Shown: piece after piece, positions 24,453 through 51,538 of the stretch | Layout: each line of letters starts with the position of its first letter | Numbering within the stretch: position 1 is the first letter of the stretch | NCBI GenBank assembly: GCA_965207115.1 | Contig: CBDBLR010000003.1 | Location: 122,674-186,673, forward strand | Direction: 5' to 3' | Length of the DNA stretch: 64,000 bases | From: Dehalococcoidia bacterium | GTDB lineage: Bacteria; Chloroflexota; Dehalococcoidia; UBA6926 | Translations under genes and position numbers: made by a program | Notes under the pieces: generated by a model | Told to the model about the DNA's origin: nothing | Database searches by the model: none | What the model saw: only the letters and a program-made list of their open reading frames with translations

Positions 24453-24471
24453 AGATAAGGAATCTACCGAG

Positions 24472-32822: not shown

Positions 32823-32842
32823 CTAGGAGCAAAAAAGAGAGA

Positions 32843-33070: not shown

Positions 33071-34703
33071 ACGAAACGACCTTACGCCGGCAGCCCTCTA
33101 CGCCAGGGTGTCCAGCGACCGCCAGGACGTGGACCTGTCCGTGTCCGCCCAGCTGAGGGCGCTCAGGGACTACGCCGACAAGAACGACTACGAGGTCGTC
33201 CGGGAGTACGTAGACGAGGCGGAGAGCGGGCGCGTGATGAACCGCCCGGAGTTCCAGAAGATGCTGGACGAGGCCAAGAAGACCGAGGCCCCTTTTGAGG
33301 AGATTTTGGTCTGGAAGTTCTCAAGATTCACCCGCAAGCGAGAGCACGCCGTCGTCCTGAAGTCTATGCTCAGGCGCAAGGGCCTCCGCGTCGTCTCCAT
33401 CACCGAGCAGGCCGAGGACAACCCCACGGGCAGGCTCCTCGAAGGCATCATCGAGACCGTGGACGAGTTCTACAGCGAGAATTTGGCGATGGAAGTCCTG
33501 CGGGGTATGAGGGAGGCCGCCTCCAGGGGCTTCTGGGTTGCTCCCATGGCCCCATACGGCTACAGGAAGGTCAAGGTGCAGGACGGCCCTAAGGAGAGGC
33601 CCGCCCTGGAGCCGGACCCCGAAACGAACGACATCGTCAAGCGCATCTTCGACCTGGCAGAGTCCCGCAAGGGGATGATGAAGATCGTCCGCATCCTCAA
33701 CGACGAAGGCATCGCCAGCCCCAGGGGTAAGCTCTGGAACAAGCCCACCGTCCACAACATGCTCAGAAACGAAGCGTACCTGGGCACCCTCGTCTGGGGC
33801 AACAACGCCAAGGACGGGGCCGAGCCGGTGCGGGTTGAAGAGGCGTTCCCCGCCACCGTCACCAAGGACCAGTTCGACCGGGTGAACAGGATACTGCGCT
33901 CCCGCGCGCCCAGGAACACCCACCCCCGCAGGGTCGGAAGCACCTTCCTGCTGAGCGGCCTGGTCAAGTGCTACCGGTGCAAGAGGGCGCTCTCGGGCCG
34001 CTACTCCAGCAGGGGCACGTTCCCCTACTACGTCTGCCACTCCTTCGTGAAGCGCGCGCCCGGGTCCTGCGACTCGCCCAGGGTGGACGCACGGCAGTTC
34101 GAGGAGCTGGTCGTCGGACTGATTCGCTCCAACATCCTGACCGAGGGCAACATTCGGAGCTTGGTCAACGTCGTGGACGAGCAGATGGACGACGTGGCCG
34201 ACGACGAGCGCAAGCGGCTGGAGACCATCGAGTCGGAGCTCGCCGACGTGCGGGGCAGGCTGGGACGGCTCTACGACCTCGTGGAGACGACGACCGAGTT
34301 CAACATGGCCGACTTCGCCCACCGCATCCGGGACCACAAGGAGCGTCAGGAGCGCCTTGAGTCCGCCGCTGAGGGAGCGAGGGCAATCCTGGCTCAGCGC
34401 AGGGCGGTCCTCGATGACGTCAAGACCATCACGGCCTATGCCAAGGACATGAGCAGGTTCCTGAAGACGAGCGAGTTGACCGAGCGCAGGGCCTTCATCG
34501 AGACCTTCGTCAAAGAGATCGAGCTCTTGCCTGACAATGCCGTCGTCCGCTACAGCGTGCCGATGCCCGACGACAGCTTGATTCCAGGAAAAAAAGTCCA
34601 GGAGATACCGCTGAACGGCTCGGTGGTATCTTCCGTAAACGGTAGCCCACCAGACTTGATAAAATCAAGAACCTTCACAATTTGCTTCAGATTGGAGATA
34701 TAG
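33063..34703 (+). CDS. Large serine recombinase 1
   Basis: YARVSS catalytic Ser, SRFTR, recombinase domain, LSGLVKC..C Zn ribbon and coiled coil; ATG at 33063 after ggagg. Confidence 0.95.
   Translation: MSERNDLTPAALYARVSSDRQDVDLSVSAQLRALRDYADKNDYEVVREYVDEAESGRVMNRPEFQKMLDEAKKTEAPFEEILVWKFSRFTRKREHAVVLKSMLRRKGLRVVSITEQAEDNPTGRLLEGIIETVDEFYSENLAMEVLRGMREAASRGFWVAPMAPYGYRKVKVQDGPKERPALEPDPETNDIVKRIFDLAESRKGMMKIVRILNDEGIASPRGKLWNKPTVHNMLRNEAYLGTLVWGNNAKDGAEPVRVEEAFPATVTKDQFDRVNRILRSRAPRNTHPRRVGSTFLLSGLVKCYRCKRALSGRYSSRGTFPYYVCHSFVKRAPGSCDSPRVDARQFEELVVGLIRSNILTEGNIRSLVNVVDEQMDDVADDERKRLETIESELADVRGRLGRLYDLVETTTEFNMADFAHRIRDHKERQERLESAAEGARAILAQRRAVLDDVKTITAYAKDMSRFLKTSELTERRAFIETFVKEIELLPDNAVVRYSVPMPDDSLIPGKKVQEIPLNGSVVSSVNGSPPDLIKSRTFTICFRLEI
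34622..34673 (+). other. Hybrid att junction between element 1 and element 2
   Basis: Core gcccacca (34645-34652); 34650-34673 is a 20/24 inverted repeat of 51463-51486. Confidence 0.8.
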
Positions 34704-34979
34704 GAAAGAAGTCTGGAGTTAGCAGTTGGTGGTGCTGATGCATTGCCTTTCGATATTGGGTGGCCCGAGCACCGGACAAACACATGTGGCGTGGATAGTC
34801 AATGATCGAACCGATGTAGAACTGTGTTTGTTTTGGCAAGTACGCCCGTCTCTTCCGGAATCACCACCAGGAATGTGCCCACTGGTGCGGCGAGGCCGCG
34901 GAATCCGCTAAGGAGATGTACGTGACGCAGCCCTTTATGGCTCCGCCCTTGACAAGGGACTAATCGAGCCCCTTGCGCC

Positions 34980-35822
34980 TCATGTCCCAACAACCGAATT
35001 GGCTTTGCATTGGGTCCACGTAACGGTTAGCTCCGTCAATTGCTCAATAGAGCAACCAGCAACCACTCTACTTTGTCCGAATATGAAAGTGTTGATTGCT
35101 CGAATGCTTTCGTCATCCGCTACGACTAGCTTCTCCGCTCCCTCTGGAATAGGTGGAATAGGAGTTACGACAACATCGTGTGCCAGTGGAAACCAGACCT
35201 CTACGCTTGGATCACTGAGATGGGAGCGACCAGGATGGGACAGTTTAACCACGGGATTGCTCCCGATAACAAAGCTGGCATCCGAATTCTTTGCCACTGC
35301 AATCCCCAACCCCTTTCCCATCAGAATTGGAAGTACTCTAATCCCCGGATCGAGGACGCTATTCACTCGTGCGTTCCCCATGATCCTCTTGACATCTGCA
35401 AGGTCACCGAATTCCCTAACGAGTTGAGGAATCCACTCTTGTGGGACAGCTTCTGAATCGATTCGATCGGACACATCCGGAACGCGCTTCCACTGTATGT
35501 AGGAGTACAGTGACCAAATCATCTTCTCGGTCCTCGTTAAGTCGGGTGTCCTCTGCATCCGAGCACTACTAACAATTTTGCGGATGATGGGGCTGACCAT
35601 TCCTTCAAGGTCGCCAAGTGATGCCTCCACAGCATTGTCTTTGTTACCGGATCTATCTTGTTGCGAATACAGGTAACGGCGAACGAAGAGCTTCTTTGGC
35701 GTTGACCGTCGAATACCATTACCCGGATGTTCCTTGTCGAAGAAGTACAGCCGCCCCTCGTTGTCCGTGAACATCTGGGACAACATCATAGGGATGAAGT
35801 GATGACGCTTTGGGTTATTCAT
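34980..35822 (-). CDS. DUF4238 family protein
   Basis: N-terminal HHFIP...F, LY...VE..L..LE, FVIGSNPV and WFPL; lower GC. Confidence 0.8.
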   Translation of the reverse strand: MNNPKRHHFIPMMLSQMFTDNEGRLYFFDKEHPGNGIRRSTPKKLFVRRYLYSQQDRSGNKDNAVEASLGDLEGMVSPIIRKIVSSARMQRTPDLTRTEKMIWSLYSYIQWKRVPDVSDRIDSEAVPQEWIPQLVREFGDLADVKRIMGNARVNSVLDPGIRVLPILMGKGLGIAVAKNSDASFVIGSNPVVKLSHPGRSHLSDPSVEVWFPLAHDVVVTPIPPIPEGAEKLVVADDESIRAINTFIFGQSRVVAGCSIEQLTELTVTWTQCKANSVVGT

Positions 35823-35832
35823 CTACTTACAA

Positions 35833-38800
35833 CTAGCGAAACTCTGACCTGATAGCAATCGCCTGATACTTCGTTGAAGTATTTGATGGGTCGGATACTA
35901 CTAACAGTATATCGGCGATGCGTCGGGCCACCTCCGCGAAGTACTGCACTTCCTCCAGCTTCATTGCACGTCCCAGGATGCCCCGCTCCCGGTATGATAG
36001 CCACTTCTTTAGGACTTGGTAGCCGCCGAGCTTGTAACCCCAGACGGCGACTGGCACGTTTCGCCAAAAGGCAAAGTCGTTCAGGTAGATGTCCAGAGTG
36101 GTCTCGCCCAGAGACTGAGTGGTCTCGCCCAGAGCATCACGTTCGCCCTCGGTGTAGCGGCGTTCGATGATACGGCCCTGGCCTGGCATGACTGCCGTGC
36201 CCTGCCCAAAGTGTCCCCAGCTGGCCGTCACCGAGAAGTCATCCCCAGTCATGTTTCTACCGTCCACAGTTGTGGGAACCGCAATTGCGCCCATCTCTGG
36301 TCTCAATTCGCCTGAGGTAACGCCAAGCACCGGAGTGTCGGAGTCCAACAAGGCGGCAATCTCACGTCCTTGAGCCGCCGATGCCATCAATTCTTCCGCA
36401 GCTTGTAAGGAATCGTCATCCGGCCAGCCCGGTAACGGAATGCGAGGCCATTCCATCCTGAGCGCTCCTGCATTGGACTCCCGATACGCTGAATCGTGCA
36501 GCACGGCAAGGACGTGGTGGAACAGGTCCTCCACACCCAGGCCCAGACGATCCAGGTAGTGCTGCGCGTCCGCCGACAGATTGGGACGACGCTGCATTTC
36601 ATCTGCTTCGATCCCCAGTCCATGGTCGAGCAAATAGGCTGGGAACATCGCTGCTCCGCGTTCAATAAGGTGCAGCGAGGACAGGTGTCGCGTAAAGTAG
36701 GTTTGTGGTTCATTCGCGTCCTTTCGTAAGTGTTGAGCTGAGGACAGCCATAGGTTTGACGAGAATGCATGCGGCATATATCCAGGTACTGGTCGCCCGA
36801 GTAGGCCGGGCTCATCTGTCCAAAACAACCATCGGCTATCAAAGGGTCGATAGGCGTATCGCACGAAGGCAGCATTGATTTGATCCTCGCGGTCAAGTAA
36901 TGCCTCCCTAACCGTCCGAGCATCTCGAATTACAAATCCGGATGAACTCAACATAGCAGCCGGATAGCGTCGGTGAATTTCTTCATGACCGATGTGCGGA
37001 TTAAAGTAGTCTTGCATGCGAGCTTGAAGTCGATCTAGGTCAATATCGATTAGAAATGGATCCCGCTTTGTCTGAACTCCTGAGAAAAGCACCGGGAACA
37101 ACTGAGGCAGTGACGGCCACCTATGCCAATCTTCGCTAGCAGCCATTGGCTTGAAGGGCAATCCAAGTCGAGGGTTGGGGGTCATTCGTGAGTAGGCTGA
37201 ATCAATGGCAGGAGAGTCGAGGTCCCCCAACAACGCATGGCGTCTCTCATCTGCTCTGGCTTCGTGGAAGTCGCGGTACAAGACTCGCTTGTCCGCCGAT
37301 GAATTATTGGCATCGGACTTGGACAACATTGTGATCGCGGTGCCTACCTTAATCCCCGGCGATTGACCTGGAAGCGCAAAGACCGTCTCACTGGTCCTTC
37401 CGTCAGGAGCGTATTCGGAGATGATGCGGTCGCCGTGCAGATTGTCTATGCGAATTACGTCGAAAGCTTCCAAATAGCGTTCCCTCATGCCGGTGAAGGA
37501 GAGCCCGTCCAGCCACGAGTAGTTGGAGATGAAGCAGACCACGCCCTGGCCCGTCTTCTCGGCGATGCGCCGCTCCGCCATTCGAAAGAAGCGCACGTAC
37601 AGGTCGTTCAACCCCTGGCCCTCAGGCTTCCGAACCCGCTTGGTCGTCCGATAGGCGGTAGAAAGTTCCCGCTCTTCGTCCACAGCCATGCCCGCAAAGC
37701 CGTTGTAGGGCGGATTGCCGAGGATCACAAGTATCGGCCGGTCCTGCTTCACACGCTCGGCGCGGTCGCGCTCCTCCTCAAGCTCCGGGAACGGCAGTTG
37801 CTTCGGTCCACTTGGCTCCCACCCGGTGAGTGCGTTGGTCAAGAAAATACCCGCTCTCTCTGCCCCATCGTCAGACAGCGGTGCGTCCAGCGCTTGCATT
37901 GTCAGCCCGACCTGTAGATGAGCGACGACGAAGGGAGCGGGCATGATCTCGAATCCGAAGACTCGCTCAGTCGCCGCCTTTTTCACTTGTGCGCCGACCA
38001 AAGCACCCAGGCCCTTGTCCTTCATGTTGGCGGCGATGCGACGCAGCACCTCGGCAAGGTAGGCCCCGGTGCCGCAGCACGGGTCGAGGACGTAGACGTT
38101 CTCTGCGGCCAGACCGTCAACTATGCCAAGGTCGTCCTTCAACGCTCGGTCAACGCGGGCAACCATGTAGCGCACTACCTCGATTGGCGTGTACCAAACC
38201 CCCAACTGCTTGCGCAGCCCGGGGTCGAACGCCTCAAGGAACGGCTCGTAGAAGTACTGGACGGCCTCTCCTTCGTTGAAGCGGGCGAAGAAGGCATCCC
38301 GATCCACCCGGTCCAAGGCCGCCGACGTCCAGTCCAGGACCTCAATCAGCTCCAATGACCGCAGACGCCCGGGGTCCGAAAGCTGTTGGAAGAGCGCCCT
38401 CAACACCGGCGCTCGGAGATGCCAGACGGCTTCATGCCAGTTGAATGGTCCTGTAGGAGAAGGCGTCTGCCGTGCCCAGAGCACCCAGGCGGAGAAGACG
38501 CCGTAGAACAGGGTTTGCACCAATGAGGAGCGGAAGAATGCCGTGCCGCGCTCGCCTTCGAAGCGGACTCCCAGTGCCTCCTCCAAGGCCGACCTCACCG
38601 CGCCGAGCGAGGGGGCGTTGCCTGCTGTCTCCACCCGCGCCAGCCCATCTCTCGCATAGGACGCCAGGAGCCAGGCCAAGTCCCTCGGCTCCACGAGCCT
38701 GGCCCGGTGGGTTAGCGCCCTGCACAGGTATTCTCCAAGACCGGCTCCGACCGCATTCCCAAAGGCGCGGGGTCTCTCAAGTCGTGATTCGAACTCATCC

Positions 38801-39249
38801 AGCGTGTCCGCCAGCCGGAATGTCTCCAGCTTCACGGGGTTGCCCGTCGCGTCCTCACCGAGCAGCACGAAGTCGCGGGTGTTGGTGACAAGCACCACGC
38901 GGTAGCGATCCCAGTAACGACTCACCTGGTCACTGGCAGCGGTCAGCCAGGCATCGTCGCCGGCAGGCTTCACTTCGACCACGCCGTACTCAGGCAACTG
39001 GCCGTCGCGAGGCTTCCCCCGCTGCACCTGTTTCGCTGCATAGAGACCGAAGTCGGGATGCCCTGCCCCCTGCTGAGCAAGCTCGCCCACGCAGAACACC
39101 TTGGGTTTGAGCGTGCCGCCGATGGCGTTCAGCAGGTTGGCGAGCGGAGGGTAGTAGGAGCGCTCGCCCGTCGCGCCACCGGACGCCCGGATGCGTCGAA
39201 GGTCGTCAAGATACGCCTCGACCGCAGATTTCAGTTTGGCTTCTGTCAT
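35833..39249 (-). CDS. Single-chain restriction-modification enzyme (Type IIG with Type ISP-like specificity domain, no helicase)
   Basis: PD...EVK nuclease, GVWYTP, LDPCCGTG, GNPPY and C-terminal YKLGGYQVLKKWLSYR. Confidence 0.88.
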   Translation of the reverse strand: MTEAKLKSAVEAYLDDLRRIRASGGATGERSYYPPLANLLNAIGGTLKPKVFCVGELAQQGAGHPDFGLYAAKQVQRGKPRDGQLPEYGVVEVKPAGDDAWLTAASDQVSRYWDRYRVVLVTNTRDFVLLGEDATGNPVKLETFRLADTLDEFESRLERPRAFGNAVGAGLGEYLCRALTHRARLVEPRDLAWLLASYARDGLARVETAGNAPSLGAVRSALEEALGVRFEGERGTAFFRSSLVQTLFYGVFSAWVLWARQTPSPTGPFNWHEAVWHLRAPVLRALFQQLSDPGRLRSLELIEVLDWTSAALDRVDRDAFFARFNEGEAVQYFYEPFLEAFDPGLRKQLGVWYTPIEVVRYMVARVDRALKDDLGIVDGLAAENVYVLDPCCGTGAYLAEVLRRIAANMKDKGLGALVGAQVKKAATERVFGFEIMPAPFVVAHLQVGLTMQALDAPLSDDGAERAGIFLTNALTGWEPSGPKQLPFPELEEERDRAERVKQDRPILVILGNPPYNGFAGMAVDEERELSTAYRTTKRVRKPEGQGLNDLYVRFFRMAERRIAEKTGQGVVCFISNYSWLDGLSFTGMRERYLEAFDVIRIDNLHGDRIISEYAPDGRTSETVFALPGQSPGIKVGTAITMLSKSDANNSSADKRVLYRDFHEARADERRHALLGDLDSPAIDSAYSRMTPNPRLGLPFKPMAASEDWHRWPSLPQLFPVLFSGVQTKRDPFLIDIDLDRLQARMQDYFNPHIGHEEIHRRYPAAMLSSSGFVIRDARTVREALLDREDQINAAFVRYAYRPFDSRWLFWTDEPGLLGRPVPGYMPHAFSSNLWLSSAQHLRKDANEPQTYFTRHLSSLHLIERGAAMFPAYLLDHGLGIEADEMQRRPNLSADAQHYLDRLGLGVEDLFHHVLAVLHDSAYRESNAGALRMEWPRIPLPGWPDDDSLQAAEELMASAAQGREIAALLDSDTPVLGVTSGELRPEMGAIAVPTTVDGRNMTGDDFSVTASWGHFGQGTAVMPGQGRIIERRYTEGERDALGETTQSLGETTLDIYLNDFAFWRNVPVAVWGYKLGGYQVLKKWLSYRERGILGRAMKLEEVQYFAEVARRIADILLVVSDPSNTSTKYQAIAIRSEFR

Positions 39250-39274
39250 AGCTCAGTAGCCTCGTTGCTTCTCG

Positions 39275-39781
39275 CTATTGGAGAAGCCGCTCCGGTTCCA
39301 CCAGCAACTCGGATACGCGTCTCCCCAGGGCACTGGCGATGGCGTCGAGGGTCCTGAACCGGGGGGACTGTTCCCCCTTCTCCACCCGCACCAAAGTCAC
39401 CCGCCCTATTTCCGCTGCACGGGCGAGGGCCTCCTGCGTCATTCCGGCGGACTCCCTGAAGTCCCGGATGCGTGCGCCCAGAGTCTGCCTGCTCTGCATG
39501 GCTATCGCCTCGATTGCCGGTCGATAGGCTGCGTCACAGTAGTGACGGGCGAAGTCCCAAGGAATCTCCACCTGCTCTCCGCCAGCAGTCTCCACCACCA
39601 TCTCGTAAGGGTTCGGCAATTCGAGGCTGGACACGGCCCCGCGTTCCTTGAGCTCAGGGACGTCGGCGTAGGGCATAAGGCCCTTGGAGCCGTCGGCAAA
39701 GCTGAGCTCGATGCCGTCCTCCAACAGGCTGGCGGCCGTCATCATCCGGTTGGCGTTCCTGACCAAAACTGCTTCCATCAT
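39275..39781 (-). CDS. Antitoxin-like protein: DUF2442-like N-terminus + XRE HTH
   Basis: IELSFADG N-domain and MTQEALARAAEIGRVTLVRVEKG HTH; follows the DUF4160 gene. Confidence 0.75.
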   Translation of the reverse strand: MMEAVLVRNANRMMTAASLLEDGIELSFADGSKGLMPYADVPELKERGAVSSLELPNPYEMVVETAGGEQVEIPWDFARHYCDAAYRPAIEAIAMQSRQTLGARIRDFRESAGMTQEALARAAEIGRVTLVRVEKGEQSPRFRTLDAIASALGRRVSELLVEPERLLQ

Positions 39782-39784
39782 CGC

Positions 39785-41006: not shown

Positions 41007-41374
41007 GCCTCAAAAAGTACAATCCCTACAATACAATCAGTACAATGTAGTTGCGATGGAGCGTCAACTGGTCATTGGCCAGATTGCTTACCCCAACCCC
41101 CTGCGCCAACCTGAATCCCGTTGGAAACCACCCTGATTGTATTCTACAATGTACTCCACTTCTCCTTACAGCCCGCACAGGGCGATTACCTTCCCTGAGC
41201 GATTGTAGTCCGACACGTCGGGCTCTCTGGCCCGCCCCCTGACCTCCGGGCTGCCTCGGTGCGTCGGGGTGTCTCTCGCCGGTCATCGCGGACTTGCCTT
41301 TCCCGGGGCGAATATCTGATAATAGCGCATGTGTTCTTTTCGCTGTGACTCTAGACAATAGGAGAGTATGCCTC

Positions 41375-43996
41375 ATGAAAACCAACCCCATCGCGAGACT
41401 ATTCAAGGGCGGGGAGAAGCCCGCCACCAAGCTGATGGCTGTCACCCCGCCCCGCTCCGGGGAGCGCACCATGCTGGGCGTGGAGAACCTGGTCAGCTCC
41501 ATCGCCGTCCCCGAACCCTTCTCGTTGGAGATCGTCGGAGACGCCGACGGCGTCACCCTGCTGGCCCGCTGTCGGGAGGGCTCCTTCGTCCGCCAGCAGG
41601 TGGGCGTCTTCTATCCCCAGGCCAGGGTGAACGAGGTCTCTCCGGAGGACGACCCGCTGCGGCTGACCGAGGGCGAACAGGCGTGGTCGATGGACCTGCG
41701 GCTCAGGGGGCCGGAGTACCTGCCCCTGCGCCCCTATCGGGACGACGACCTGCTCGACCCCGGCTCCGACCCGCTGATCTCCGTCATCGGCTCCCTGTCC
41801 GACCTGGAGGAGGGGGAACGGCTGGTGGCCCGGCTGCGCTTGTTGTCACTGGGTTCGGACTGGTCCATCGCCCACCAGGAGAAGGCCAACCCCAAGCCTG
41901 CCTACGACCCCACCACGTCCCCATCCTCCACCCAGCCACGGATCGACCGCACCAACGCAGCGACGATGACCATCTTGGCGTTGATGGTGCCGCCGGCGCT
42001 CATGGCTTACCTCTGGATACAGAGGGGTGAGACGTGGAAGGCGGTGCTGCTGGGTATTGGCGTGGCGTCCCTGGCTGCCGTGGCGGGCTGGGCCTGGTGG
42101 CGCTTCAAGAAGTGGCGTTCCGGGGGCAAGTACCAGGACCCGCTGATGATCAAGGACAAGGTGTCCCAGCCTGCCTACGAGGCCCAGCTGGAGGTGACCG
42201 CCGTGCTGTCGGAGCACGGCACCGAGAACAGGGCCAGGGAGCTCCTGCGGAACGTGGCCGCGGCCTACAGCCACTACAACAACCCCGCCGGAGCCAGCTT
42301 CCGGGCGACCAAGGTGCGCCCGGCGGTTCCCGACAGGGAGCCGTCGCCTCCCCGCAGGAGCCTGTTGGCGGGCAGGAATGTGCTGGGGGTGCGGGAGCTG
42401 GCGTCCCTGTGGCATCCCCTGGGGGCCGGAGACCAACTGCCCATGGTGGCCCGCACCGGGGCGAAGGCGCTGTTCCCCTCGTCCAGGAACGGCTCCGGCG
42501 GAGCCTACGTGGGAGACACGGTGGTGGGCAGGCCGAGGAAGGTGCACTTCCCCGCCGACGCGATGGGACGGCACCACCTCTACGTGGCCCGCACCCGCAT
42601 GGGCAAGTCCACGCTGATGCACCACCTGGTGGTCCACAAGATGCGGGAGAAGGCGGCGGGCCGCAACGAAAACGCCATCGTGGTCGTCGATCCCCACGAC
42701 GACCTGGTGAACTCCCTGCTGAAGCACGTGCCCGAGGAGATCGTGGACCGGGTGTACCTCATCGACCTGAAGAACGAGGAGCGTTCGCCGGGCATCAACC
42801 TGCTGGACGCCCGCATATTCCCCGACCGGGACCGCACGACCGACTCGGTGGTGCGCATCTCCAAGGGGTTGTGGGACCAGTGGGGACCCCGGATGCAGTC
42901 CATCCTGGAGCACACGGTCAAGAGCCTGCACGAGTACAACACCCACCCGGACACGAGGGAGGACGAGCAGTGCACCATCCTGGACGGGCTGCGTATGCTG
43001 TCCGACCTGAAGTACCGCAAGCGTGTGCTGAGGAGGGTGTCCGACCCCTACGTCCTGGGCTGGTGGGCCAGGGACTTCCGCAACTGGAGCCGCACCCTGA
43101 AGGCGGACGCCATCGCGCCGGTGCAGACCCGCCTGGCCTACTACGCGACGTCGAAGAAGGCCAGGGCCATATTGGGGCAGCGCCGCTCGACGCTTGACCT
43201 GCGTCAGGTGATCGCCGAGGGCGGGGTGCTGCTGGCGGCCACCTCCCAGTCCGATGCGGGGCAGGACGTGTCGGCCCTGGTGGGAGGGTCGCTGCTCAAC
43301 TTGACGGACGCGGTGATCCGGGAGCAGGGACGGCTCTCGCCGGAGGAGAGACGGGGGGCGCTGGTGGTGGTGGACGAGATGCAGGCGATGCCCGGCGTGG
43401 ACTACGAGTCGATGCTCTCCGAGCTGGGCAAGTTCGGGGCCAGCTTCATCCTGGCCACCCAGAGCCTGGCGAGGCTGAAGGATCTGTCCGAGACCATGCA
43501 GGACACGCTCCTTGCCAACGTGGGGTGTCTTGCGGTGTTCCAGGTGGCGGCGTCCGACGCCCGGCAGTTGATAGGCGAGTTGGACCGGGAGCGGTTGGAC
43601 GAGGAGGACCTGGTGTCGCTGCCCACGCACCACTGCTACGTGCGGGCCACGGTGGACGGGCTGAGGCAGCCGACCTACTCCCTGGGAGTGCGTGAGCCCG
43701 AGGCAGGGAGTCCCGCCGCCGAGGAGCGGGTTCGGGCGCGGGCCGAAGCCTACACCACCACGGCGGAGGTCATCGCCTCCCAGGACCCCGAGGTGGATCG
43801 GATGGCGCGGGAGTATCGGGAGGAGCTGGAGCGGGAGGAAGAGGAGCAAAAGCACGAGGGCGGAACCCCGCCTCCTCCCCCCGCCGGCAATGAGACGGCA
43901 AGCCAGTCCAAGCCAAAGAAGAAGAAACCGCGCACACGGCGCGGGGCCGGCAACCATCAGGACAGTCCCGGCGGCGGCCCGGCGCAGGATGAATGA
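41375..43996 (+). CDS. VirD4/TraG-like coupling protein 2
   Basis: Collinear paralog of 26802-29345 with the same ARTRMGKS and VDEMQ motifs. Confidence 0.85.
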   Translation: MKTNPIARLFKGGEKPATKLMAVTPPRSGERTMLGVENLVSSIAVPEPFSLEIVGDADGVTLLARCREGSFVRQQVGVFYPQARVNEVSPEDDPLRLTEGEQAWSMDLRLRGPEYLPLRPYRDDDLLDPGSDPLISVIGSLSDLEEGERLVARLRLLSLGSDWSIAHQEKANPKPAYDPTTSPSSTQPRIDRTNAATMTILALMVPPALMAYLWIQRGETWKAVLLGIGVASLAAVAGWAWWRFKKWRSGGKYQDPLMIKDKVSQPAYEAQLEVTAVLSEHGTENRARELLRNVAAAYSHYNNPAGASFRATKVRPAVPDREPSPPRRSLLAGRNVLGVRELASLWHPLGAGDQLPMVARTGAKALFPSSRNGSGGAYVGDTVVGRPRKVHFPADAMGRHHLYVARTRMGKSTLMHHLVVHKMREKAAGRNENAIVVVDPHDDLVNSLLKHVPEEIVDRVYLIDLKNEERSPGINLLDARIFPDRDRTTDSVVRISKGLWDQWGPRMQSILEHTVKSLHEYNTHPDTREDEQCTILDGLRMLSDLKYRKRVLRRVSDPYVLGWWARDFRNWSRTLKADAIAPVQTRLAYYATSKKARAILGQRRSTLDLRQVIAEGGVLLAATSQSDAGQDVSALVGGSLLNLTDAVIREQGRLSPEERRGALVVVDEMQAMPGVDYESMLSELGKFGASFILATQSLARLKDLSETMQDTLLANVGCLAVFQVAASDARQLIGELDRERLDEEDLVSLPTHHCYVRATVDGLRQPTYSLGVREPEAGSPAAEERVRARAEAYTTTAEVIASQDPEVDRMAREYREELEREEEEQKHEGGTPPPPPAGNETASQSKPKKKKPRTRRGAGNHQDSPGGGPAQDE

Positions 43997-45657
43997 GGGC
44001 GAAGGAACGGGAGGGTTTGGCCCTGCGCACGTTGGCGGCCATGCCCTTCCTCGACTACCTGGAGTTGGCAGCCGTCTCCGGCATGGCGGAGAGCACGGCC
44101 CGCCACGTCCTGGGCCGCTTGCAGCGGAAGGGGTTGGCGGACTTGATCCGCCACGCCTCTCCCCTAACGACGACCACCAGGCGTTGGGTCGCCACCGCTG
44201 ATGGACTGCGGTTTCTGGCTGTTGAGAGCGGAACCGGCATCGACCGCCTGCTGCGGACGCATCCGGTCTCGGCCCACTGGCAACGCATCCTGCTGGCCCG
44301 GCTGGACGCGGTGGCCGTCGTCTACCGGCTGGCCTCGGCGGTGGCGGATGCGGTTGGCCCTCCCCGCTTCCGGTGGTACCGCGCCGCCCCGCTGGACGCC
44401 GCCATGCTGCTCCCCGACGACAGGACCGTCGGCGTGATCCGGCAGGGTCCCACCGCCGACCGGACATCCTTCTCCGACCGGGTACGACGCCTTATGGACC
44501 CGGAGCAGTCACGGCCCCGCGCCCTGCTTGCCCTCATGCCCGACGAGGCGAGGCTGCGGCAGGCACGGCGGCTGTTGGCTCGCTATCCCGGCCCGGTGTA
44601 CCTGGCTCTTGAACGGGACGCGGCACGCCTGTTGACTGACGACAAGGTATGGCACGGAACGTCCACTCCTGCGCAGTTGTCCCTTGAGGACATCTTCGCT
44701 CGCCTACGGCCGGGCGGCACGCTGCCGTGGGAACCGCCAACTTCGAGACTGTCCCTGCCCGATGACGCCGACCTGAATGGGATTGAAGATGATGATGACG
44801 TCGCCAACCACCTTCTCCCCGCCCTCCTCAAGCCCGCCGAGAAGCGGGTGCTGGACTGCCTCGCCGACTGGCCCCTGATCGACGCCGCAGACCTGGGCGG
44901 CATCCTGGGGCTATCGCCTTCAGGGGTCTCCAAGTTGACCTCCCGGCTTGAGAAGCTCGGTCTTCTCTCCAAGACGGCGCTTGACGGTCGTCGCCGATTG
45001 GCGCTCAGGGATGGTGGGCTATCCCTTCTGGCCCGCAGGGACCGGGTCTCAGTGGGGGCTGCCGTGCGCCGCTGGAGCGTCGAGACGATGGACGGACAAT
45101 CTCCGTCGTCCTGGCGAGACCTACCGGGGGCACGGGCGCGTCCCCTTGCCCGGACCATCGACCACACCCAGGCGGTGCACCGGTTCATGGCGGCGCTGGT
45201 GCAGCAGGCGAAGGGAACCAAGAGCTACCGCGTCGCGCAGGTTTCGCCGCCCCATCACGCCGCCCGATACTTCCGGTACGGAGGCAGCCTACGCTCCATC
45301 CACCCCGACGGCTTCGGCGTGGCGCAGATCGGCAGCCGGACTATCCCCTTCTTCCTGGAGTACGAGCGCAGGGCGGTGAATCCTTCCACCATGGCCGCCC
45401 GGCTTGCCCCCTACCTGCGCTACTACTCCTCCAACCGGCCCCTGGAAGACCACGGGGAACGCCCGTTGGTGCTCATCGTCTTTGAAGACTCGTTGGCTGA
45501 AGCGAATTTTCTGACTGTTGCCCGACGTGAGATGGAGCGCACCAGGGTCAAGCTGCCCCTGTGGGTCTCCCATAGGGAAGCGATAGAGAGAGTCGGGCCG
45601 CTGGGTAGGGTTTGGCGCAGCCCAGACGTGCTGGAGCCGGAAAGCATCTTCGGCTGA
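43993..45657 (+). CDS. Replication-relaxation family putative relaxase 2
   Basis: Paralog of 29342-30997; PDGFG...LEYER; ATGA overlap. Confidence 0.75.
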   Translation: MRAKEREGLALRTLAAMPFLDYLELAAVSGMAESTARHVLGRLQRKGLADLIRHASPLTTTTRRWVATADGLRFLAVESGTGIDRLLRTHPVSAHWQRILLARLDAVAVVYRLASAVADAVGPPRFRWYRAAPLDAAMLLPDDRTVGVIRQGPTADRTSFSDRVRRLMDPEQSRPRALLALMPDEARLRQARRLLARYPGPVYLALERDAARLLTDDKVWHGTSTPAQLSLEDIFARLRPGGTLPWEPPTSRLSLPDDADLNGIEDDDDVANHLLPALLKPAEKRVLDCLADWPLIDAADLGGILGLSPSGVSKLTSRLEKLGLLSKTALDGRRRLALRDGGLSLLARRDRVSVGAAVRRWSVETMDGQSPSSWRDLPGARARPLARTIDHTQAVHRFMAALVQQAKGTKSYRVAQVSPPHHAARYFRYGGSLRSIHPDGFGVAQIGSRTIPFFLEYERRAVNPSTMAARLAPYLRYYSSNRPLEDHGERPLVLIVFEDSLAEANFLTVARREMERTRVKLPLWVSHREAIERVGPLGRVWRSPDVLEPESIFG

Positions 45658-46014
45658 CTTGCCAATGGATGCAGGGACTGATAGCTTGTGGCGACCGGCC
45701 TTGTGGTGCTGCAATGAGCGACTGCGGCTGAGTCGCATTGGTCTCGGATGAGACAAAGCAGAGCACACCCACCGCGAGAACGCGCACGGATGGTCTTAAA
45801 GATGATCAATCCCGCGAGCAAATGCTCAGAGAGGACTGATTACACTATTAGAAGTAGGCAGTCTGCAACACGTCATTTTGAGATAAACATACATTTCTTG
45901 CTTCCTCCCAAAACATTAGGGCAGAGACAGTTGCCTTTAGTGAGGTATGCAGCATGTCCTTAGGACATGCTATTATGATCGCACCGAGGCATCAGTGAGC
46001 GAGTTGAATCAAAT

Positions 46015-47295
46015 ATGCATGACCTAGATATTGTAGGGGACTTTTGGCTAGCACCTAAACCCGACCACAAGGTGGCAGGACGCCTTACGTTCAACACCTT
46101 GGACGGACTGGACCTCAACCTCATCGGTTCGCTTGACAACCCCAACGGATTTAGAGCACACCAGACTGGACCTATCGGCTCCCACAACGAGTCGGTGCGC
46201 ATTCTAGGTCAGACGAATAGAGGACCCATTACGCTGGGGGAGTGCCGGCTCAAGTCCGGGACGTACCACATGTTTGGCTCCTCTCATGTCCCACAAGAGA
46301 CATATCGTGCTAATTGGATTTGTCTCGGTACACATTTCAGCGAAGATCAGCCGCTTGTCTTCAGTGGCTTCAACATAAACATTCAACATCTGGAACACTG
46401 GTTAGGACTATCAGCACTCAGTATTGAGGTCGATTATCAAGAGACTTCGAAAGAGATTGAACAGATACGGATAGTTAATACTCCTTTAGATAATCCAGAG
46501 GTCGAATCGACGCTTGGAAGACTAGAACTGCTCTTTGAATCAGTACTTGCGGGTGACCATATTGCAGAGAGTACGATTAAACAGAACTGCTCAGTTCAAC
46601 TTAGCTTCACTGAGGACAAAAGTCTTGAAGACACTCTCAAATTATGCACTTCATTGCAAAGCCTGGTGACTATTGGAGTTGATACACCTGTATCTATCAA
46701 CCGTATCTCCTTGATCCGTACCGATGTAGAGCGAACTATAGATTTTGTAGCTCGGTTGATTAGTCCAGTTAACCAGCACACTAGTAAGCCTCCTGATCGA
46801 TATGACATGCTGTTTACCTATGAAGATATGGGTGGATTGGAAGCTGTCGCGAGATGGATTGGCGTGGCTGGGAAATATCAACTGGTGATTGCAGCGCTCC
46901 TGAGTCCCAAGTACAGGCCGCCCTTCTACACAGAACACCGTTTCTTTGATGCCTTTACAGCTGCCGAAACCTTCTGGCATATACGAAAGTCGGACAAACA
47001 CATCAATAGGCATAAGTTCAAGCAATTGGGCCTTATGGCGGGCGACGAGTTCAAGACCTTGGTGGGTGATGTCGGCCAATGGACCGAACGCATATGGGAT
47101 GCACGGAGAGATAGCGTGGTGCATCGCGGGTTAGATGAGGACAGACACTTTCCTATACACTTGTTTGCTGAATCTCTCTATTTTATGGTGATGTTGTGTC
47201 TACTAAAGGAGTCAGTCGTATCCAATGATGCATTGAGCAGAATTCAACAACACGAGAGGTTTCAAAGACTGGCTCGGGAACTGGAGAGATCATAG
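46015..47295 (+). CDS. ApeA-like HEPN-domain protein (putative antiphage RNase)
   Basis: G.FWL...VAGRLTF N-domain and C-terminal RDSVVH (Rx4H); low GC. Confidence 0.75.
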   Translation: MHDLDIVGDFWLAPKPDHKVAGRLTFNTLDGLDLNLIGSLDNPNGFRAHQTGPIGSHNESVRILGQTNRGPITLGECRLKSGTYHMFGSSHVPQETYRANWICLGTHFSEDQPLVFSGFNINIQHLEHWLGLSALSIEVDYQETSKEIEQIRIVNTPLDNPEVESTLGRLELLFESVLAGDHIAESTIKQNCSVQLSFTEDKSLEDTLKLCTSLQSLVTIGVDTPVSINRISLIRTDVERTIDFVARLISPVNQHTSKPPDRYDMLFTYEDMGGLEAVARWIGVAGKYQLVIAALLSPKYRPPFYTEHRFFDAFTAAETFWHIRKSDKHINRHKFKQLGLMAGDEFKTLVGDVGQWTERIWDARRDSVVHRGLDEDRHFPIHLFAESLYFMVMLCLLKESVVSNDALSRIQQHERFQRLARELERS

Positions 47296-47867
47296 TGGAT
47301 AATTGTTTGCTTGTTACGCTGGACGGTATCAGAATCGATGTAGCCGGTGTGCCGACAAAGAGTTTTGTCGAGAAACTGGATGGACCACTAAACGGAATCG
47401 TCTTTGCATTGGCATCTATCGTTAGAGATATCAGTGATGGTCACATGAATCAAGAGTTCAATTGGACGCACAATCCCGAGGGATTGCGACTTCGTCCGAG
47501 TGGTACCGGTCGTTTATTTGCTCGGTGGAGTTTTGAGCCATCTCCCAGCCTTCAAGCCATACCCAGATCCCATGTGAATTTGGCAATTGACAGACTATTG
47601 AAATTGGGGGAGGGAAGGGATTCTGCTTGGTCCGAATCTGTTTTGGAATACCTCTACGAAGTGTCAGGCTCGCTTCCTGACGGCGTTTTTCTGTTTTTGG
47701 GAGATTCTAAAAATCCTAAGAGGTTCACGGTCCTAGACCCCGATGACGGTTTGGAGTTACAGGAGGAGTTTTCCGCCAAACTACAAGCATCCGTGGAAGC
47801 GGTGGCTGGTGGCCAAACAACCCATGCCGTCGAGGAGGTCGCCCAAAGACAACGTCTTTCTTGGTGA
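47295..47867 (+). CDS. Hypothetical protein with antitoxin-like C-terminus
   Basis: DPDDGLELQEEF...EEVAQR..LSW tail; TGATG coupling to the RelE-like gene. Confidence 0.55.
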   Translation: MDNCLLVTLDGIRIDVAGVPTKSFVEKLDGPLNGIVFALASIVRDISDGHMNQEFNWTHNPEGLRLRPSGTGRLFARWSFEPSPSLQAIPRSHVNLAIDRLLKLGEGRDSAWSESVLEYLYEVSGSLPDGVFLFLGDSKNPKRFTVLDPDDGLELQEEFSAKLQASVEAVAGGQTTHAVEEVAQRQRLSW

Positions 47868-48133
47868 TGTACAAGGTTGAGTTTACGGATAGTGCGGAAG
47901 ATGATCTCTCTCGCCTGGACAGGACTATAGCACAGCGAGTGCTGGATAAGGTCAATTGGTTGGCTACCAATATGGAGTCGGTAAGCCACAAACCTCTGAC
48001 AGGTCATCCCGAGAGGGTTTTTAGGCTACGGATTGGTGACTATCGAGCAATATACAGCTATCATCGTGTGGATCGCAGAATAGTTATTCATTTCGTTAGA
48101 CATCGCAGCGACATTTACCGACGAACTAAGTGA
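47867..48133 (+). CDS. relE: RelE/ParE family toxin
   Basis: YKVEFT..A..DL..LD, KPLTG, FRLRIGDYRAIY, HRSDIYR. Confidence 0.9.
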   Translation: MYKVEFTDSAEDDLSRLDRTIAQRVLDKVNWLATNMESVSHKPLTGHPERVFRLRIGDYRAIYSYHRVDRRIVIHFVRHRSDIYRRTK

Positions 48134-48599
48134 TTCTGCGTCTTTTCGATTAGCACGATCCTATTGCCGACGCTCCGAAAACGTCACTGTTTTGAGGACC
48201 GTCACGTCAACAGTGCTATCCTTGCGCGCACCGCCATTCTTTTGACATTGGTCTGCCCAATGTTTCAACTCTGAGCCCACTTCGTCAATTCGTAGAAACG
48301 CCACTCCCAGCTACGGCGCTTCCAAGTCCAGGTCGGAACGTACCCGCAAGTCGAAGTGCTCACTGTTTTCATCCTGTAGAGGAGTGATCCGCCCCATTTC
48401 AGCTACGAAACCGCCCGAATTGCATTTTTGTGCAACTCACTTCATTTCTCTGTACACCCGAACGGCATCGCCAATGAGGGTATTTGACCCAGGTCTTATA
48501 GGGGCGCTCACGTGAGCGCCCTCGCGGGTAGTTATGCCCAGCGCCTCGACCGCTCAAACTGGAAGACACACACCTACGTCCAGACGCGGGATAAACGGG

Positions 48600-48791
48600 A
48601 TGAAAAGGGCCAACGGAAGGAAGCCATCGACGGACCAACGGGCGACGGCGTACTCCGCCGAGCAGCGGGAGACGGTGCGGCGCGGGCTGGGCATCCTCGC
48701 CCGGATGATCGCCCGCGCCCACCTTCGGCATCAGGCGTCCCGGCCCGGGGACGCACTCAAGCCGACAGCTGAAGACGAGGGCGGAGACTGA
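48600..48791 (+). CDS. Small protein, candidate recombination directionality factor
   Basis: Paralog of 32036-32260 in the same position upstream of an LSR. Confidence 0.65.
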   Translation: MKRANGRKPSTDQRATAYSAEQRETVRRGLGILARMIARAHLRHQASRPGDALKPTAEDEGGD

Positions 48792-49170
48792 CCTACCCGC
48801 ATTGTGGACTTCGACCCTTGAGGCCACCGAGTCCAGTAACCACCTCCGGCATTTTGTCCACTTCCCTAGCGGCGGGTGTCCATTCCCGTCTGACTCGCTC
48901 ACCGGCGTTTTGTCTACTCCCGTGGCTGAACCTGTCCGGTAGGGGTGGAAGGAGCACCGGAGTCAAATCGCTTACTCCTATGCGACAGGATGCCTCGCTT
49001 ACCCTGATTTCAGCTACGACACTGCCCAATGCCATCTTGTCTGCCTTGTCACGATTGCTGTACACGGGTAGAACACCGCCAGCGCCTCCTCGAATCACTC
49101 GCCTTCCAAGGAGGGACTGTGTGCGAGCCCTAGTTTGGCCGTAGCCGTCGCCAGGATGCCGGATTGCCTC

Positions 49171-49199
49171 TTGCATAGATTCCGTATCTGGAATATGAT
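49171..49199 (+). promoter_or_regulatory. higBA promoter with palindromic operator; probably leaderless
   Basis: TTGCAT-17-TATGAT, attcc-N6-ggaat in the spacer, and ATG 7 nt downstream with no RBS. Confidence 0.65.
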
Positions 49200-49205
49200 A
49201 CACCC

Positions 49206-49568
49206 ATGCTTTGGGAAGTCGAGTACACGGACGAATTCGGGGAGTGGTGGCAGGGACTCTCGGAGGGGCAGCAGGACGCAGTGGCCACCAGAGTCGAGTT
49301 GCTGATGGAGCACGGCCCCAACTTGCCGTACCCCTACTCCACGGACGTCAGAAGCTCGCGGCACGGCGTCCTGCGCGAGCTTCGAGCGCAGAGTGGCGGG
49401 AGGCCCATCCGGGTCTTCTACGCCTTCGACCCCAGGCGAACGTCAATCCTGCTCATCGGAGGCGACAAGACGGGCAACGACCGGTTCTACGAGGAGTACG
49501 TGCCGGTGGCCGACGTCCTCTATGACGAGCATCTGGAAGAGCTGAGAAAGGAGGGGCTGATCGAATGA
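49206..49568 (+). CDS. higB: HigB-like (RelE superfamily) toxin
   Basis: GPNLPYP...ELR.Q..GRPIRVFYAFDPRR..ILLIGGDK; toxin gene precedes the antitoxin. Confidence 0.88.
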   Translation: MLWEVEYTDEFGEWWQGLSEGQQDAVATRVELLMEHGPNLPYPYSTDVRSSRHGVLRELRAQSGGRPIRVFYAFDPRRTSILLIGGDKTGNDRFYEEYVPVADVLYDEHLEELRKEGLIE

Positions 49569-49909
49569 GTGGACGACATCCGTTCAGCAAGCTGACCAGG
49601 GACTTCACTCCGGAGCGCCGCCGACGCATCGACGAGATGAAGCGGGAGCTGCTCGCCGAGATGCCGCTGCACGAGCTTCGTCGGGCACGGGAGTTGACCC
49701 AGCGGGACATGGCGAAGCTGCTGAAGGTGAATCAGCCCGCCGTCTCCAAGATGGAGCAGCGGGCGGACGTGTACGTTTCCAGCCTGCGGTCCTACATCGA
49801 GGCCGTGGGCGGGAAGCTGAAGATAGTGGCCGAGTTTCCCGAAGGGGAGATCGCCATCACCAACTTCTCCGACGTTGGAGACGAGGGACTCACACCAACC
49901 GAGAGTTAG
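49565..49909 (+). CDS. higA: HigA-like XRE antitoxin
   Basis: LTQRDMAKLLKVNQPAVSKMEQRAD...LRSYIEAVGGKL. Confidence 0.88.
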   Translation: MSGRHPFSKLTRDFTPERRRRIDEMKRELLAEMPLHELRRARELTQRDMAKLLKVNQPAVSKMEQRADVYVSSLRSYIEAVGGKLKIVAEFPEGEIAITNFSDVGDEGLTPTES

Positions 49910-49924
49910 ACAGAGGAGGACAGC

Positions 49925-51538
49925 ATGAAGAAGGACCTACAGCCCCTCACGCCGGCTGCCCTCTACGCTCGGGTGTCCAGCGACCGGCAGGACGTGGACC
50001 TGTCCGTGGCCGCCCAGCTTCGGGCGCTCAAGGAATACGCGAAGGCCAACGGCTACTCCGTAGCCCGCGAGTACGTGGACGAGGCCGAGAGCGGTAGAGT
50101 GGCCGACCGGCCCCAGTTCCGGGAGATGATCGAGGAGGGCTCCAAGCCGAAGGCTCCCTTTGACGTCATTCTCGTCTGGAAGTTTTCGAGATTCACCCGC
50201 AAGCGGGAGCACGCCGTGGCTTTCAAATCCCAACTGCGGCGCAAGGGCATCCGGGTGGTGTCCATCACCGAGCAGGCCGAGGACAACGCCACCGGCAGGC
50301 TGCTTGAAGGAATCATTGAGAGCGTGGACGAATATTACAGCGAAAATCTTGCCCAAGAAGTCGTCCGGGGGATGAGGGAGGCGGCTTCGAGGGGCTTCTT
50401 CCTCGGCTCCAAGGCCCCCTTCGGCTACAGGAAGGTCAAGGTCAGCGACGGGGCGAAGGAGCGCCCCACCCTGGAGGTTGACCCGGCCACAGCTCCTTTA
50501 GTGAAGGAGATATTCGAGAAATCGCTCCAGGGCTACGGCCTAAAGGAGATATGCAAGGAGCTGAACGAGAGGGGCGTCACCAACCGGGGCAAGCGCTGGT
50601 ACAAGGGAGGACTCCACTACGTGCTGCGGAACGAAGCGTACACCGGCACAGCCGTGTGGGGTCTCAAGGGCAAGGGAGAGAAGGCCCAGGACCCGGTAAG
50701 GGTGGAGGGAGCGTGGCCGGCCCTGATATCGAGGGAGTTGTTCGAGGACGTACAGCAGGCGATGCGGGAGCGCGCCCCCAAGGTGCAGAGGCCCGCGAGA
50801 GTGGGAAGCCCCTATCTCCTGAGCGGTCTGCTCAAGTGCGGGGTCTGTGGCAGGCCCTATCGCGCCCAGGGAGCCAAGAGCGGCCAGTTCGCCTACTACA
50901 TCTGCGGGACCCTGTTCACCGAAGGCGCGGGGACGTGCAGCGCCCGCTACCTGAACGCCCCCAGGGTTGAAGACTTCATCGTCGCGAAAATCAGGGAGCG
51001 TATCCTGACCGAGGAGACCATCGTGGAGTTGGTGCAGCTGGTGGCCGAGGAGATAGACGCGATGGCGGAAGAGTTGTCGGGAAGGCTGGAGGTTGTCGAG
51101 GCGGAGCTTGAGGACGTGAAGAGGCGTCTTGGGAAGCTCTACGAGGCCATCGAGACCAGCGACCTGACGTTGGAGGTCCTGTCGCCCCGCATCATGTCCC
51201 TGCGGCATCGTGAGGAGCAACTGGAGGCTGCGCGGGAGGACGCCGAGCGCCAGCTTGAGCATCGCAGGGTTGCCCTTCCCGACGCAGAGGAGATAGTGGA
51301 GTACGTTGCGGACTTCCGAAACTTCCTGAAGGAGGGGACGATCCCCGAGCGCAAGGCGCTCATCCGCAACTTCGTGGAGGCCATTGAGGTCAATGGAGAT
51401 GAGGCCGTTCTGACGTACACGGTACCCATGCCGAGGGACGGGGTGAGGCGGGAATCGGCCTCGGTTCTTGATTTCGTCCAGTCCGGCCCGCCACACTCGC
51501 GATGTATGTGGCCCACGACAACGAGGCAGGCGTGCTGA
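49925..51538 (+). CDS. Large serine recombinase 2
   Basis: YARVSSDRQD and Zn ribbon CGVC...C...C; paralog of LSR1; RBS gaggagg. Confidence 0.95.
   Translation: MKKDLQPLTPAALYARVSSDRQDVDLSVAAQLRALKEYAKANGYSVAREYVDEAESGRVADRPQFREMIEEGSKPKAPFDVILVWKFSRFTRKREHAVAFKSQLRRKGIRVVSITEQAEDNATGRLLEGIIESVDEYYSENLAQEVVRGMREAASRGFFLGSKAPFGYRKVKVSDGAKERPTLEVDPATAPLVKEIFEKSLQGYGLKEICKELNERGVTNRGKRWYKGGLHYVLRNEAYTGTAVWGLKGKGEKAQDPVRVEGAWPALISRELFEDVQQAMRERAPKVQRPARVGSPYLLSGLLKCGVCGRPYRAQGAKSGQFAYYICGTLFTEGAGTCSARYLNAPRVEDFIVAKIRERILTEETIVELVQLVAEEIDAMAEELSGRLEVVEAELEDVKRRLGKLYEAIETSDLTLEVLSPRIMSLRHREEQLEAAREDAERQLEHRRVALPDAEEIVEYVADFRNFLKEGTIPERKALIRNFVEAIEVNGDEAVLTYTVPMPRDGVRRESASVLDFVQSGPPHSRCMWPTTTRQAC
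51463..51493 (+). other. Right att junction of element 2
   Basis: Arm ggttcttgatttcgtccagtccgg plus core gcccgcca. Confidence 0.8.

Follow-up and report, generated by a model that had tools for sequence, protein, structure and literature searches.

Gene content of the locus

The 64-kb stretch of DNA analysed here (the window; C3:122674-186673, where C3 coordinates are positions on the contig) belongs to the 2.1-Mb, three-contig assembly of a Dehalococcoidia bacterium and holds the larger part of an integrative and conjugative element (ICE), ICE1, followed by an integrative and mobilizable element (IME), IME_2, each with the gene of a large serine recombinase (LSR1 and LSR2, respectively) at its right end (Table 1). 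An earlier note on this sequence had proposed attachment (att) sites of such a recombinase at the ends of IME_2 and a common target for the two elements, and the present analysis follows these sites through the genome and its relatives.

ICE1 spans C3:117727-157318 (39.6 kb), with its left end 4.9 kb left of the window. On its minus strand lie accessory and replication genes, identified by Pfam as helicase/methylase, RadC, SSB, Rad52 and primase, and on its plus strand the transfer module and LSR1, such that genes for an integrase, a relaxase, a coupling protein and a type IV secretion pore are found inside one pair of att sites, as is characteristic of an ICE. The conserved N-terminus suggests that the true start of LSR1 would be the ATG near 33051. 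Between the relaxase and LSR1 there are two tandem 211-bp units (31289-31710) that are 94% identical, and at 124-1383 the ICE cargo includes a leucine-rich repeat (LRR) and RCC1-repeat protein with 111-bp repeats.

IME_2 (window ~34647-51489, 16.8 kb) has its own integrase and defined att ends together with its own relaxase and coupling protein, and none of its 13 open reading frames (ORFs) scanned with Pfam matched a VirB4, VirB6 or pilin family, the combination expected of an IME. Its DNA is colinear with that of ICE1 at 71-77% identity. LSR1 and LSR2 each match PF00239, PF07508 and PF13408, the three domains of an LSR, and the YARVSS motif at the LSR N-terminus is presumably catalytic.

Two sister elements are present in the same genome. 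IME_A (C3:101787-117722, 16 kb) lies left of the window and encodes a full-length DSR2 match, a methylase, a relaxase, an HTH_17 protein, a UvrD-like helicase, an antitoxin and the recombinase LSR_A. IME_3 (C3:1994451-2017216, 22.8 kb) lies at the tRNA-Ile gene with the same arms as ends and carries type I-E cas family matches (cas3, cse1, cse2, cas7, cas5, cas6e and cas1), a type IIG enzyme, a relaxase, a ParE-toxin and helix-turn-helix (HTH) pair and LSR_3. The place immediately upstream of the LSR gene, taken in IME_2 by a toxin and antitoxin pair, is occupied by an antitoxin-family gene in IME_A and by the ParE/HTH pair in IME_3. All three IMEs are defence islands, and LSR2, LSR_A and LSR_3 are 94-95% identical with their domains intact, compared with 54% identity between LSR2 and LSR1.

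Table 1. Features of the locus and of the related junctions (positions are those of the window unless a contig is named; T4SS, type IV secretion system)
Feature	Position	Strand	Basis or remark
ICE1, right 34.6 kb in window	1..34645	+	Pfam; junctions S2/S3
ICE1 transfer module	21006..30997	+	Pfam
TrbL/VirB6-like (ICE1)	21006-21983	+	Pfam
T4SS pilins (ICE1)	22088-22375 and 24120-24452	+	Pfam
VirB4/TraC-like ATPase (ICE1)	24424-26724	+	Pfam
Coupling protein (ICE1)	26700-29345	+	Pfam
Replic_Relax relaxase (ICE1)	29342-30997	+	Pfam
LSR1, serine integrase of ICE1	32955..34703	+	Resolvase + Recombinase + Zn_ribbon_recom
P1 arm, right-end half-site of ICE1	34622..34645	+	19/24 complementary to ICE1 left-end arm (C3:117727)
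Junction S3 core CCCA	34646..34649	+	crossover inferred at CC 34647-34648
P'2 arm (34650-34673) and rest of 17-codon in-frame tail (PDLIKSRTF...)	34650..34703	+	
IME_2 cargo block	34980..39781	-	Pfam, PADLOC
DUF4238 protein (IME_2)	34980-35822	-	
Type IIG/ISP restriction-methylase, 1138 aa (IME_2)	35833-39249	-	
HTH regulator (IME_2)	39275-39781	-	
IME_2 mobilisation module	41294..45657	+	Pfam
Coupling-protein homologue, TrwB-type (IME_2)	41294-43996	+	61% aa identity to that of ICE1
Replic_Relax relaxase (IME_2)	43993-45657	+	47% aa identity to that of ICE1
ApeA-like / PDC-S58 candidate defence gene (IME_2 cargo)	46015..47295	+	Pfam, PADLOC
Gp49/HigB-like toxin + HTH antitoxin pair	49206..49909	+	Pfam; just upstream of LSR2
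LSR2, serine integrase of IME_2, 537 aa, YARVSS motif	49925..51538	+	frame crosses S4
P2 arm, attP-type half-site	51463..51486	+	
Junction S4 core CCCG	51487..51490	+	crossover inferred at CC 51488-51489
Right flank of array, outside IME_2	51491..53028	+	B' half + 497-aa ORF (51502-52995) without Pfam family
nadE (NAD synthase)	53029..54942	-	first conserved chromosomal gene right of insert
Junction S1	C3:101783		left, tRNA-like stretch; right, P'2
Junction S2	C3:117723		left, P2; right, arm 19/24 complementary to window 34622-34645
Junction S3	34646		left, P1 (partner of S2 right arm); right, P'2
Junction S4	51487		left, P2; right, unrelated sequence
Junction S5	C3:1994447		left, 3' end of tRNA-Ile(GAU); right, P'2
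Junction S6	C3:2017217		left, P2; right, ICE-type arm
~965-bp non-coding stretch of relatives	G004:C1:537098-538061; G011:C29:36946-37910		

Arms and junctions

The arms named in the earlier note, 51463-51486 (P2) and 34650-34673 (P'2), were confirmed by a genome scan to be reverse complements at 20 of 24 positions, with 4 mismatches, and beside both of them stands a core of the form CCC(A/G)CCA (CCCACCA at 34646-34652, CCCGCCA at 51487-51493). The 20/24 repeat taken alone is not beyond chance in the window: an exhaustive count of 24-nt stretches in the 64 kb gave 217 ordered position pairs of at least 20/24 complementarity, which, as each repeat enters twice and neighbouring registers are counted separately, corresponds to about 100 inverted repeats, and with a window G+C of 60-70% such a repeat is not rare there. 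As the match by itself is at chance level, the case for a function is made by position and recurrence.

Both arms fall within the last ~25 codons of two LSR frames, in the same register relative to the shared core. In the 2.1-Mb genome the P2 arm has three exact copies and the P'2 arm two exact copies and one with a single mismatch, and these copies pair around the three LSR-carrying elements IME_A, IME_2 and IME_3. The resulting junctions, S1 to S6, all have the common core. At the window locus they delimit an IME-ICE-IME array of 72 kb (IME_A, ICE1, IME_2) that starts at an orphan tRNA-like half-site, S1, its left outermost site, 20.9 kb left of the window start. The earlier note had also predicted, upstream, an arm resembling the reverse complement of 34622-34645 behind a tRNA; the arm was found at C3:117727 with 19 of 24 positions complementary, preceded instead by the P arm of IME_A. 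The cores at 34646-34649 and 51487-51490 are thus quite probably LSR recombination junctions that bound IME_2 within the array of IME_A, ICE1 and IME_2.

Crossover and half-site architecture

On the P side of the junctions identity always extends through ...GGCCC and on the P' side it always begins from CCCACCAG, so that the exchange must fall within the three Cs, with the mirror-image B-type half-sites described below setting the centre at the second and third C. The G of the S4 core CCCG is taken to come from the target side. These limits of identity and the mirror-image half-sites bear out the proposal that the arms are the P and P' halves of a serine-integrase attP centred on CC. In keeping with this, the arms of 24 nt, matching at 20 of 24 positions around CCC(A/G), have the form of an attP site, an imperfect inverted repeat of ~50 bp with a 2-bp crossover, and a contiguous P|P' junction is present at locus L110 of another metagenome-assembled genome (MAG).

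The recurrence of the P arm was followed in relatives. Within the genus, 7 of 22 genomes contain the P2 arm (up to 3 mismatches), at 11 places in total, and at six of these places an ICE arm of the ACGGTA type comes next. When 80 related LSR loci of named Dehalococcoidia MAGs were compared, the P arm (up to 4 mismatches) was present in 79, with CCC following the arm in 76 of the 79 before the sequences diverge. What follows is an ICE-type (ACGGTA) arm in at least 23 of these loci, a mirror image of the tRNA T-arm half-site in 24 (for example L119, L131 and L149), a P' arm forming an intact attP-like site in one (L110) and other sequence in 31, several of which resemble inverted LSR gene ends. 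From what follows the P arm in both sets, stacking against another element is a common state.

Counted from the CC centre at the second and third C, GTCCAG is found at -12..-7 in both the tRNA-Ile half-site and P2, and GGTTC at -19..-15 in the tRNA-Ile half-site as against -25..-21 in P2, a shift of 6 bp that is outward in P2. In the P'2 arm this outer motif recurs at +21..+25. Among the 24 mirror-image right flanks, 23 have TCGAAC beginning at +13, which mirrors the tRNA register exactly. No tRNA gene was found at these junctions: ARAGORN on the 80 loci gave two tRNAs, both elsewhere, and Rfam, run on 15 of the 24 mirror-image loci, gave none. The orphan half-site at C3:101759-101786 is of the same kind as these 24 mirror-image half-sites. 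For LI integrase, the zinc-ribbon motif of attB lies 5 bp closer to the centre than in attP (Rutherford et al., 2013, PMC3783163), and here the outer motif of the tRNA end is likewise shifted inward, by 6 bp. At the level of sequence the half-site shift is independent, mechanism-level support for reading the window arms as probably attP-type, the tRNA end as probably attB-type and CC as the likely centre.

Target site and the 74-kb insert

The proposal that both elements share a tRNA 3' end left of the window as target stands in part, since the CCCACCA end of tRNA-Ile(GAU) is used by both element types elsewhere, whereas the site at this locus is the orphan half-site. The S1 stretch (C3:101759-101786) resembles the T-loop and acceptor end of tRNA-Ile(GAU), and no tRNA was called there by ARAGORN. 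At S5, tRNA-Ile(GAU) is a normal 77-nt gene ending ...ATGCCCCACCA, with IME_3 beginning at its last bases. A second ARAGORN 'tRNA-Ile' at C3:2056010, 96 nt with a long extra arm, was read as a false positive.

Downstream of tRNA-Ile(GAU), compared in 22 genomes of the genus, a P'2-type arm follows directly in four (G000, G004, G002 and G007) and a diverged version of it in G032; the gene is followed by an ICE1-type arm in G017, by the inverted ICE type in G003 and by further LSR-end types in G005, G033, G018 and G011. In G016, tRNA-Ile is joined straight to the sequence that here lies beyond the ICE-type arm at C3:1678497, and from the comparison of these two junctions the break is placed between CCC and A.

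The downstream partners of tRNA-Ile and tRNA-Lys are swapped in this genome relative to those of the genus (C3:1678497, 1712752, 1994453 and 14517). Here an ICE lies after tRNA-Lys, and beyond it comes the sequence found downstream of tRNA-Ile in G016; the array at tRNA-Ile runs over the contig end and start and stops at the sequence that G011 and G016 have after tRNA-Lys. The swap is apparently either an inversion of ~282 kb with ends at att junctions or a mis-join through ICE copies in the assembly.

The insert at the window locus is apparent from its flanks. Between the class-V aminotransferase gene on the left and nadE on the right lie 74 kb in this genome, compared with a spacing of 18 bp to 3.7 kb in the other genomes of the genus (18 of 18). 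Neither the ~190 bp around the orphan half-site nor the 1.5 kb with the 497-aa ORF right of S4 has a counterpart at the aminotransferase-nadE locus in these 18 genomes, and neither the right flank nor the orphan half-site had a match when metagenome contigs were scanned for exact copies. Against 401 genomes of the class the 497-aa ORF had partial matches only, at 31-50% identity and at other places. In the two closest relatives, G004 and G011, a conserved non-coding stretch of ~965 bp lies between the aminotransferase and nadE genes, without the orphan site.

Proposed growth of the array and alternative explanations

The junctions suggest a mode of array growth in which an IME-type attP would consist of the P2 arm, the CC crossover and the P'2 arm, and the target would be the T-arm/acceptor 3' end of a tRNA, that of tRNA-Ile(GAU) elsewhere and the orphan tRNA-like half-site here. 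Integration would keep the tRNA-like half-site and the CCC-A-CCA core, with a newcomer entering the attL of the resident element; because half-site and core would stay intact, each newcomer may be expected to integrate next to the half-site. By this logic IME_2 would have entered the orphan site, followed by ICE1 and then by IME_A, each beside the orphan half. This one rule probably explains all junctions here as well as the locus of tRNA-Ile, IME_3 and the inverted ICE and the arrays of G004 and G007. IME_2 might leave as a circle or within a larger composite, and its gene content, together with the homology of its coupling protein and relaxase to those of ICE1, suggests that it could be transferred through the type IV secretion pore of the ICE.

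Several points weigh against this account. The empty site for IME_2 that the earlier note had anticipated in relatives was looked for and not found, the unoccupied orphan site being absent from both the relatives and the metagenome contigs. The order of arrival would follow from the half-site logic only. Contigs of one sample (two runs) compared with window 33000-52900 gave no joint of the excised circle; the only long contig joint runs from 34676 to 49080, its shorter side being 22 letters, and the contigs break at 34648 and 51463 because S3 and S5 share 30 nt of identity. IME_2 yielded no oriT (origin of transfer) and no directionality factor. At the internal junctions, P2|P'1 and P1|P'2, there is no tRNA-like half-site, so that excision of IME_2 or ICE1 by itself would need an integrase to act on a half-site of the other type. 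Furthermore, phage serine integrases are reported not to use attL or attR as integration targets (Rutherford et al., 2013, PMC3783163), such that the accretion rule departs from the textbook enzyme; it is closer to what is seen in the tandem serine-recombinase islands at ssrA (PMC3146451) and in SCCmec.

In a different explanation, the 72-kb array moves, if at all, only as a composite, the inner junctions (34646 and C3:117723) are fossils and IME_2 is no longer independent. For the IME-type integrase, S1 and S4 alone form a proper attL/attR pair, the B-type (tRNA-like) half-site being found at S1 alone and the inner junctions joining P-type halves of two integrases, and excision and transfer of accreted elements has been documented for streptococcal arrays of ICEs and cis-mobilizable elements (CIMEs; PMC5704250). 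Yet hybrid junctions of these types recur in other species with other neighbours, which points to repeated independent joining, and near-identical IME arms and integrases occur in three copies with different cargo, as would be the case for self-moving units; movement only as a composite is therefore considered unlikely. Less likely again is that ICE1 was a latecomer, inserted into a P2|P'2 site between two head-to-tail IMEs, with the ICE targeting the attachment site of its satellites. Deleting ICE1 on paper does leave exactly P2|P'2, and a chromosomal P|P' junction is known from the MAG locus L110. Against it, the arm immediately after tRNA-Ile is of the ICE1 type in G017 and of the inverted type in G003, an indication that the tRNA half-site is a target of the ICE integrase; in the B-type register, P2 and P'2 have little in common with this half-site; and two different rules would be needed where one suffices.

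That the inverted repeat reflects only coding constraint or chance in the tails of paralogous recombinase genes, with no role in recombination, is hardly credible. The abundance of repeats of 20/24 in the window and the position of both arms inside reading frames would fit with this, but paralogous coding sequence is expected to give direct rather than inverted repeats, and it is exactly at the arms that homology is lost, both among the element copies and between this genome and related ones. Accretion of separately integrated elements by serine recombinases at tRNA-like half-sites is the preferred reading of the array.

Integrase genes that cross their own attP

The LSR frames cross the junctions in translation, LSR1 across S3 and LSR2 across S4, with attP lying inside the last ~10 codons of the LSR gene. 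On the P'2 side the CCA frame reads PDL(I/T/M)K(S/T)RTF... and is closed by its 18th codon, a stop, in all six flanks of the P'2 type (three of this genome and those of G004, G002 and G007), although these differ in nucleotides. At the left end of the ICE type a 28-residue tail ending ...GL(A/S)(I/V)PV(A/V/L) was found in 11 of 12 cases. Within the array, LSR_A ends in the ICE tail and LSR1 in the IME tail, whereas the last 15 residues of LSR2 come from the target flank. The conserved 17-codon tail, at the opposite end of the integrated element, would become the C-terminus of LSR2 in the circular form, and the conservation of in-frame tails on the P' side suggests that only the circle, with P joined to P', would encode the native C-terminus. 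The same possibility has been raised for the recombinase DsiB of Dehalococcoides (McMurdie et al., 2011, PMC3146451).

Taken further, these observations can be combined into a tentative and rather doubtful proposal, in which the LSR genes are split by attP with native enzyme made from the circle only, the swap of tails could couple the activity of ICE and satellite on hybrid junctions, and a single T-arm-like half-site serves as landing pad. If true, arrays could grow limitlessly and att sites at different tRNAs could recombine with one another, as in the apparent ~282-kb inversion.

Relation to known systems

The closest published system is that of the ssrA islands of Dehalococcoides with the serine recombinase DsiB (McMurdie et al., 2011, PMC3146451), found in the same bacterial class, where a single small RNA gene is likewise followed by several tandem islands. 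As with DsiB (~540 aa), the 3' end of the recombinase gene here overlaps the att site, with the stop codon set by the neighbour, and the DsiB islands have also been proposed to be mobilizable rather than conjugative, with accretion invoked (PMC3146451). The two differ in their targets: the DsiB islands use the tmRNA gene with a 20-bp direct repeat, whereas the elements here target tRNA-Ile, tRNA-Lys or orphan tRNA-like half-sites and have only CCC(A)CCA as common core. The DsiB islands are also described as carrying a six-gene integration module with a second small recombinase, DsiA, and a RecF/ParB/Mom module (PMC3146451), and Pfam gave no second Resolvase-domain protein and no RecF, ParB or Mom family among the IME_2 ORFs. 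Unlike the ssrA islands, the array here includes an ICE with type IV secretion genes.

Arrays of ICEs together with mobilizable elements resemble the accretion described in streptococci, where IMEs encode a relaxase and in some cases also a coupling protein, and rely on an ICE for the pore (Guedon et al., 2017, PMC5704250). In the streptococcal arrays described there at tRNA ends the integrases are tyrosine integrases with long shared cores, in contrast to the serine integrases here, and streptococcal IMEs with site-specific serine recombinases are described as disrupting dispensable genes (PMC5704250), whereas here the tRNA end is restored. With phage integrases (LI/A118, Bxb1 and phiC31; PMC3783163) the LSRs share the three domains, an imperfectly palindromic attP of ~50 bp and a 2-bp crossover. 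They differ from them in the shift of 6 bp rather than 5 bp, in having attP inside the integrase gene and in belonging to conjugative or mobilizable elements rather than phages. One good B-type half-site also seems to be enough here, unlike for the phage integrases, because the other half varies freely.

The composite SCCmec islands of the CcrAB serine recombinases, also discussed in PMC3146451, likewise stack one behind another at the 3' end of a single conserved gene. They differ from the present array in their rlmH/orfX target, in the two-recombinase system and in not being known to carry conjugation genes. A small full-text literature search found no description of a tRNA-targeting LSR family, the match listed being on enterococcal cassette chromosomes, and for ICEs and type IV secretion in Dehalococcoidia there was nothing on this class among the first 10 matches listed. 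The array is a variant of the known tandem islands of serine integrases at a small RNA gene, with ICE/IME accretion added, and its biology follows from known principles of integrases and of ICEs and IMEs.

The anatomy of the att sites is unusually complete for one obtained from sequence alone, with both attP arms and their centre readable and with the universal T-arm/acceptor end of a tRNA as attB, and the dozens of natural att variants are raw material for the use of integrases as genome-engineering tools. Almost nothing is known of conjugation in uncultured Dehalococcoidia, a little-studied group, whose defence islands appear to travel as satellites stacked against conjugative elements; the cargo concerned includes DSR2, type IIG restriction enzymes and, in the copy at tRNA-Ile, type I-E CRISPR-Cas.

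Further ICE copies and other observations

A second, inverted ICE copy (C3:2017221-2050981) has 75-90% nucleotide identity to ICE1; its right end was not found by the arm scan or the core scan and was traced indirectly afterwards. Further ICE1-like copies lie at C3:1695587-1712740, ~1890388-1906785 and 1-6935, and the LSR of the first of these converges on tRNA-Lys(UUU), the end of which is also ...GGCCCACCA. The second array also includes, at C3:2061832-2074184, giant genes with repeats of ~705 bp, in which the contig ends.

Contigs C1 and C2 were considered as excised forms and rejected, having no similarity to C3. In contig C1 (23.7 kb) one 24-nt stretch occurs three times at a spacing of about 9.1-9.2 kb, and the contig looks like the read-through of a small circular replicon.

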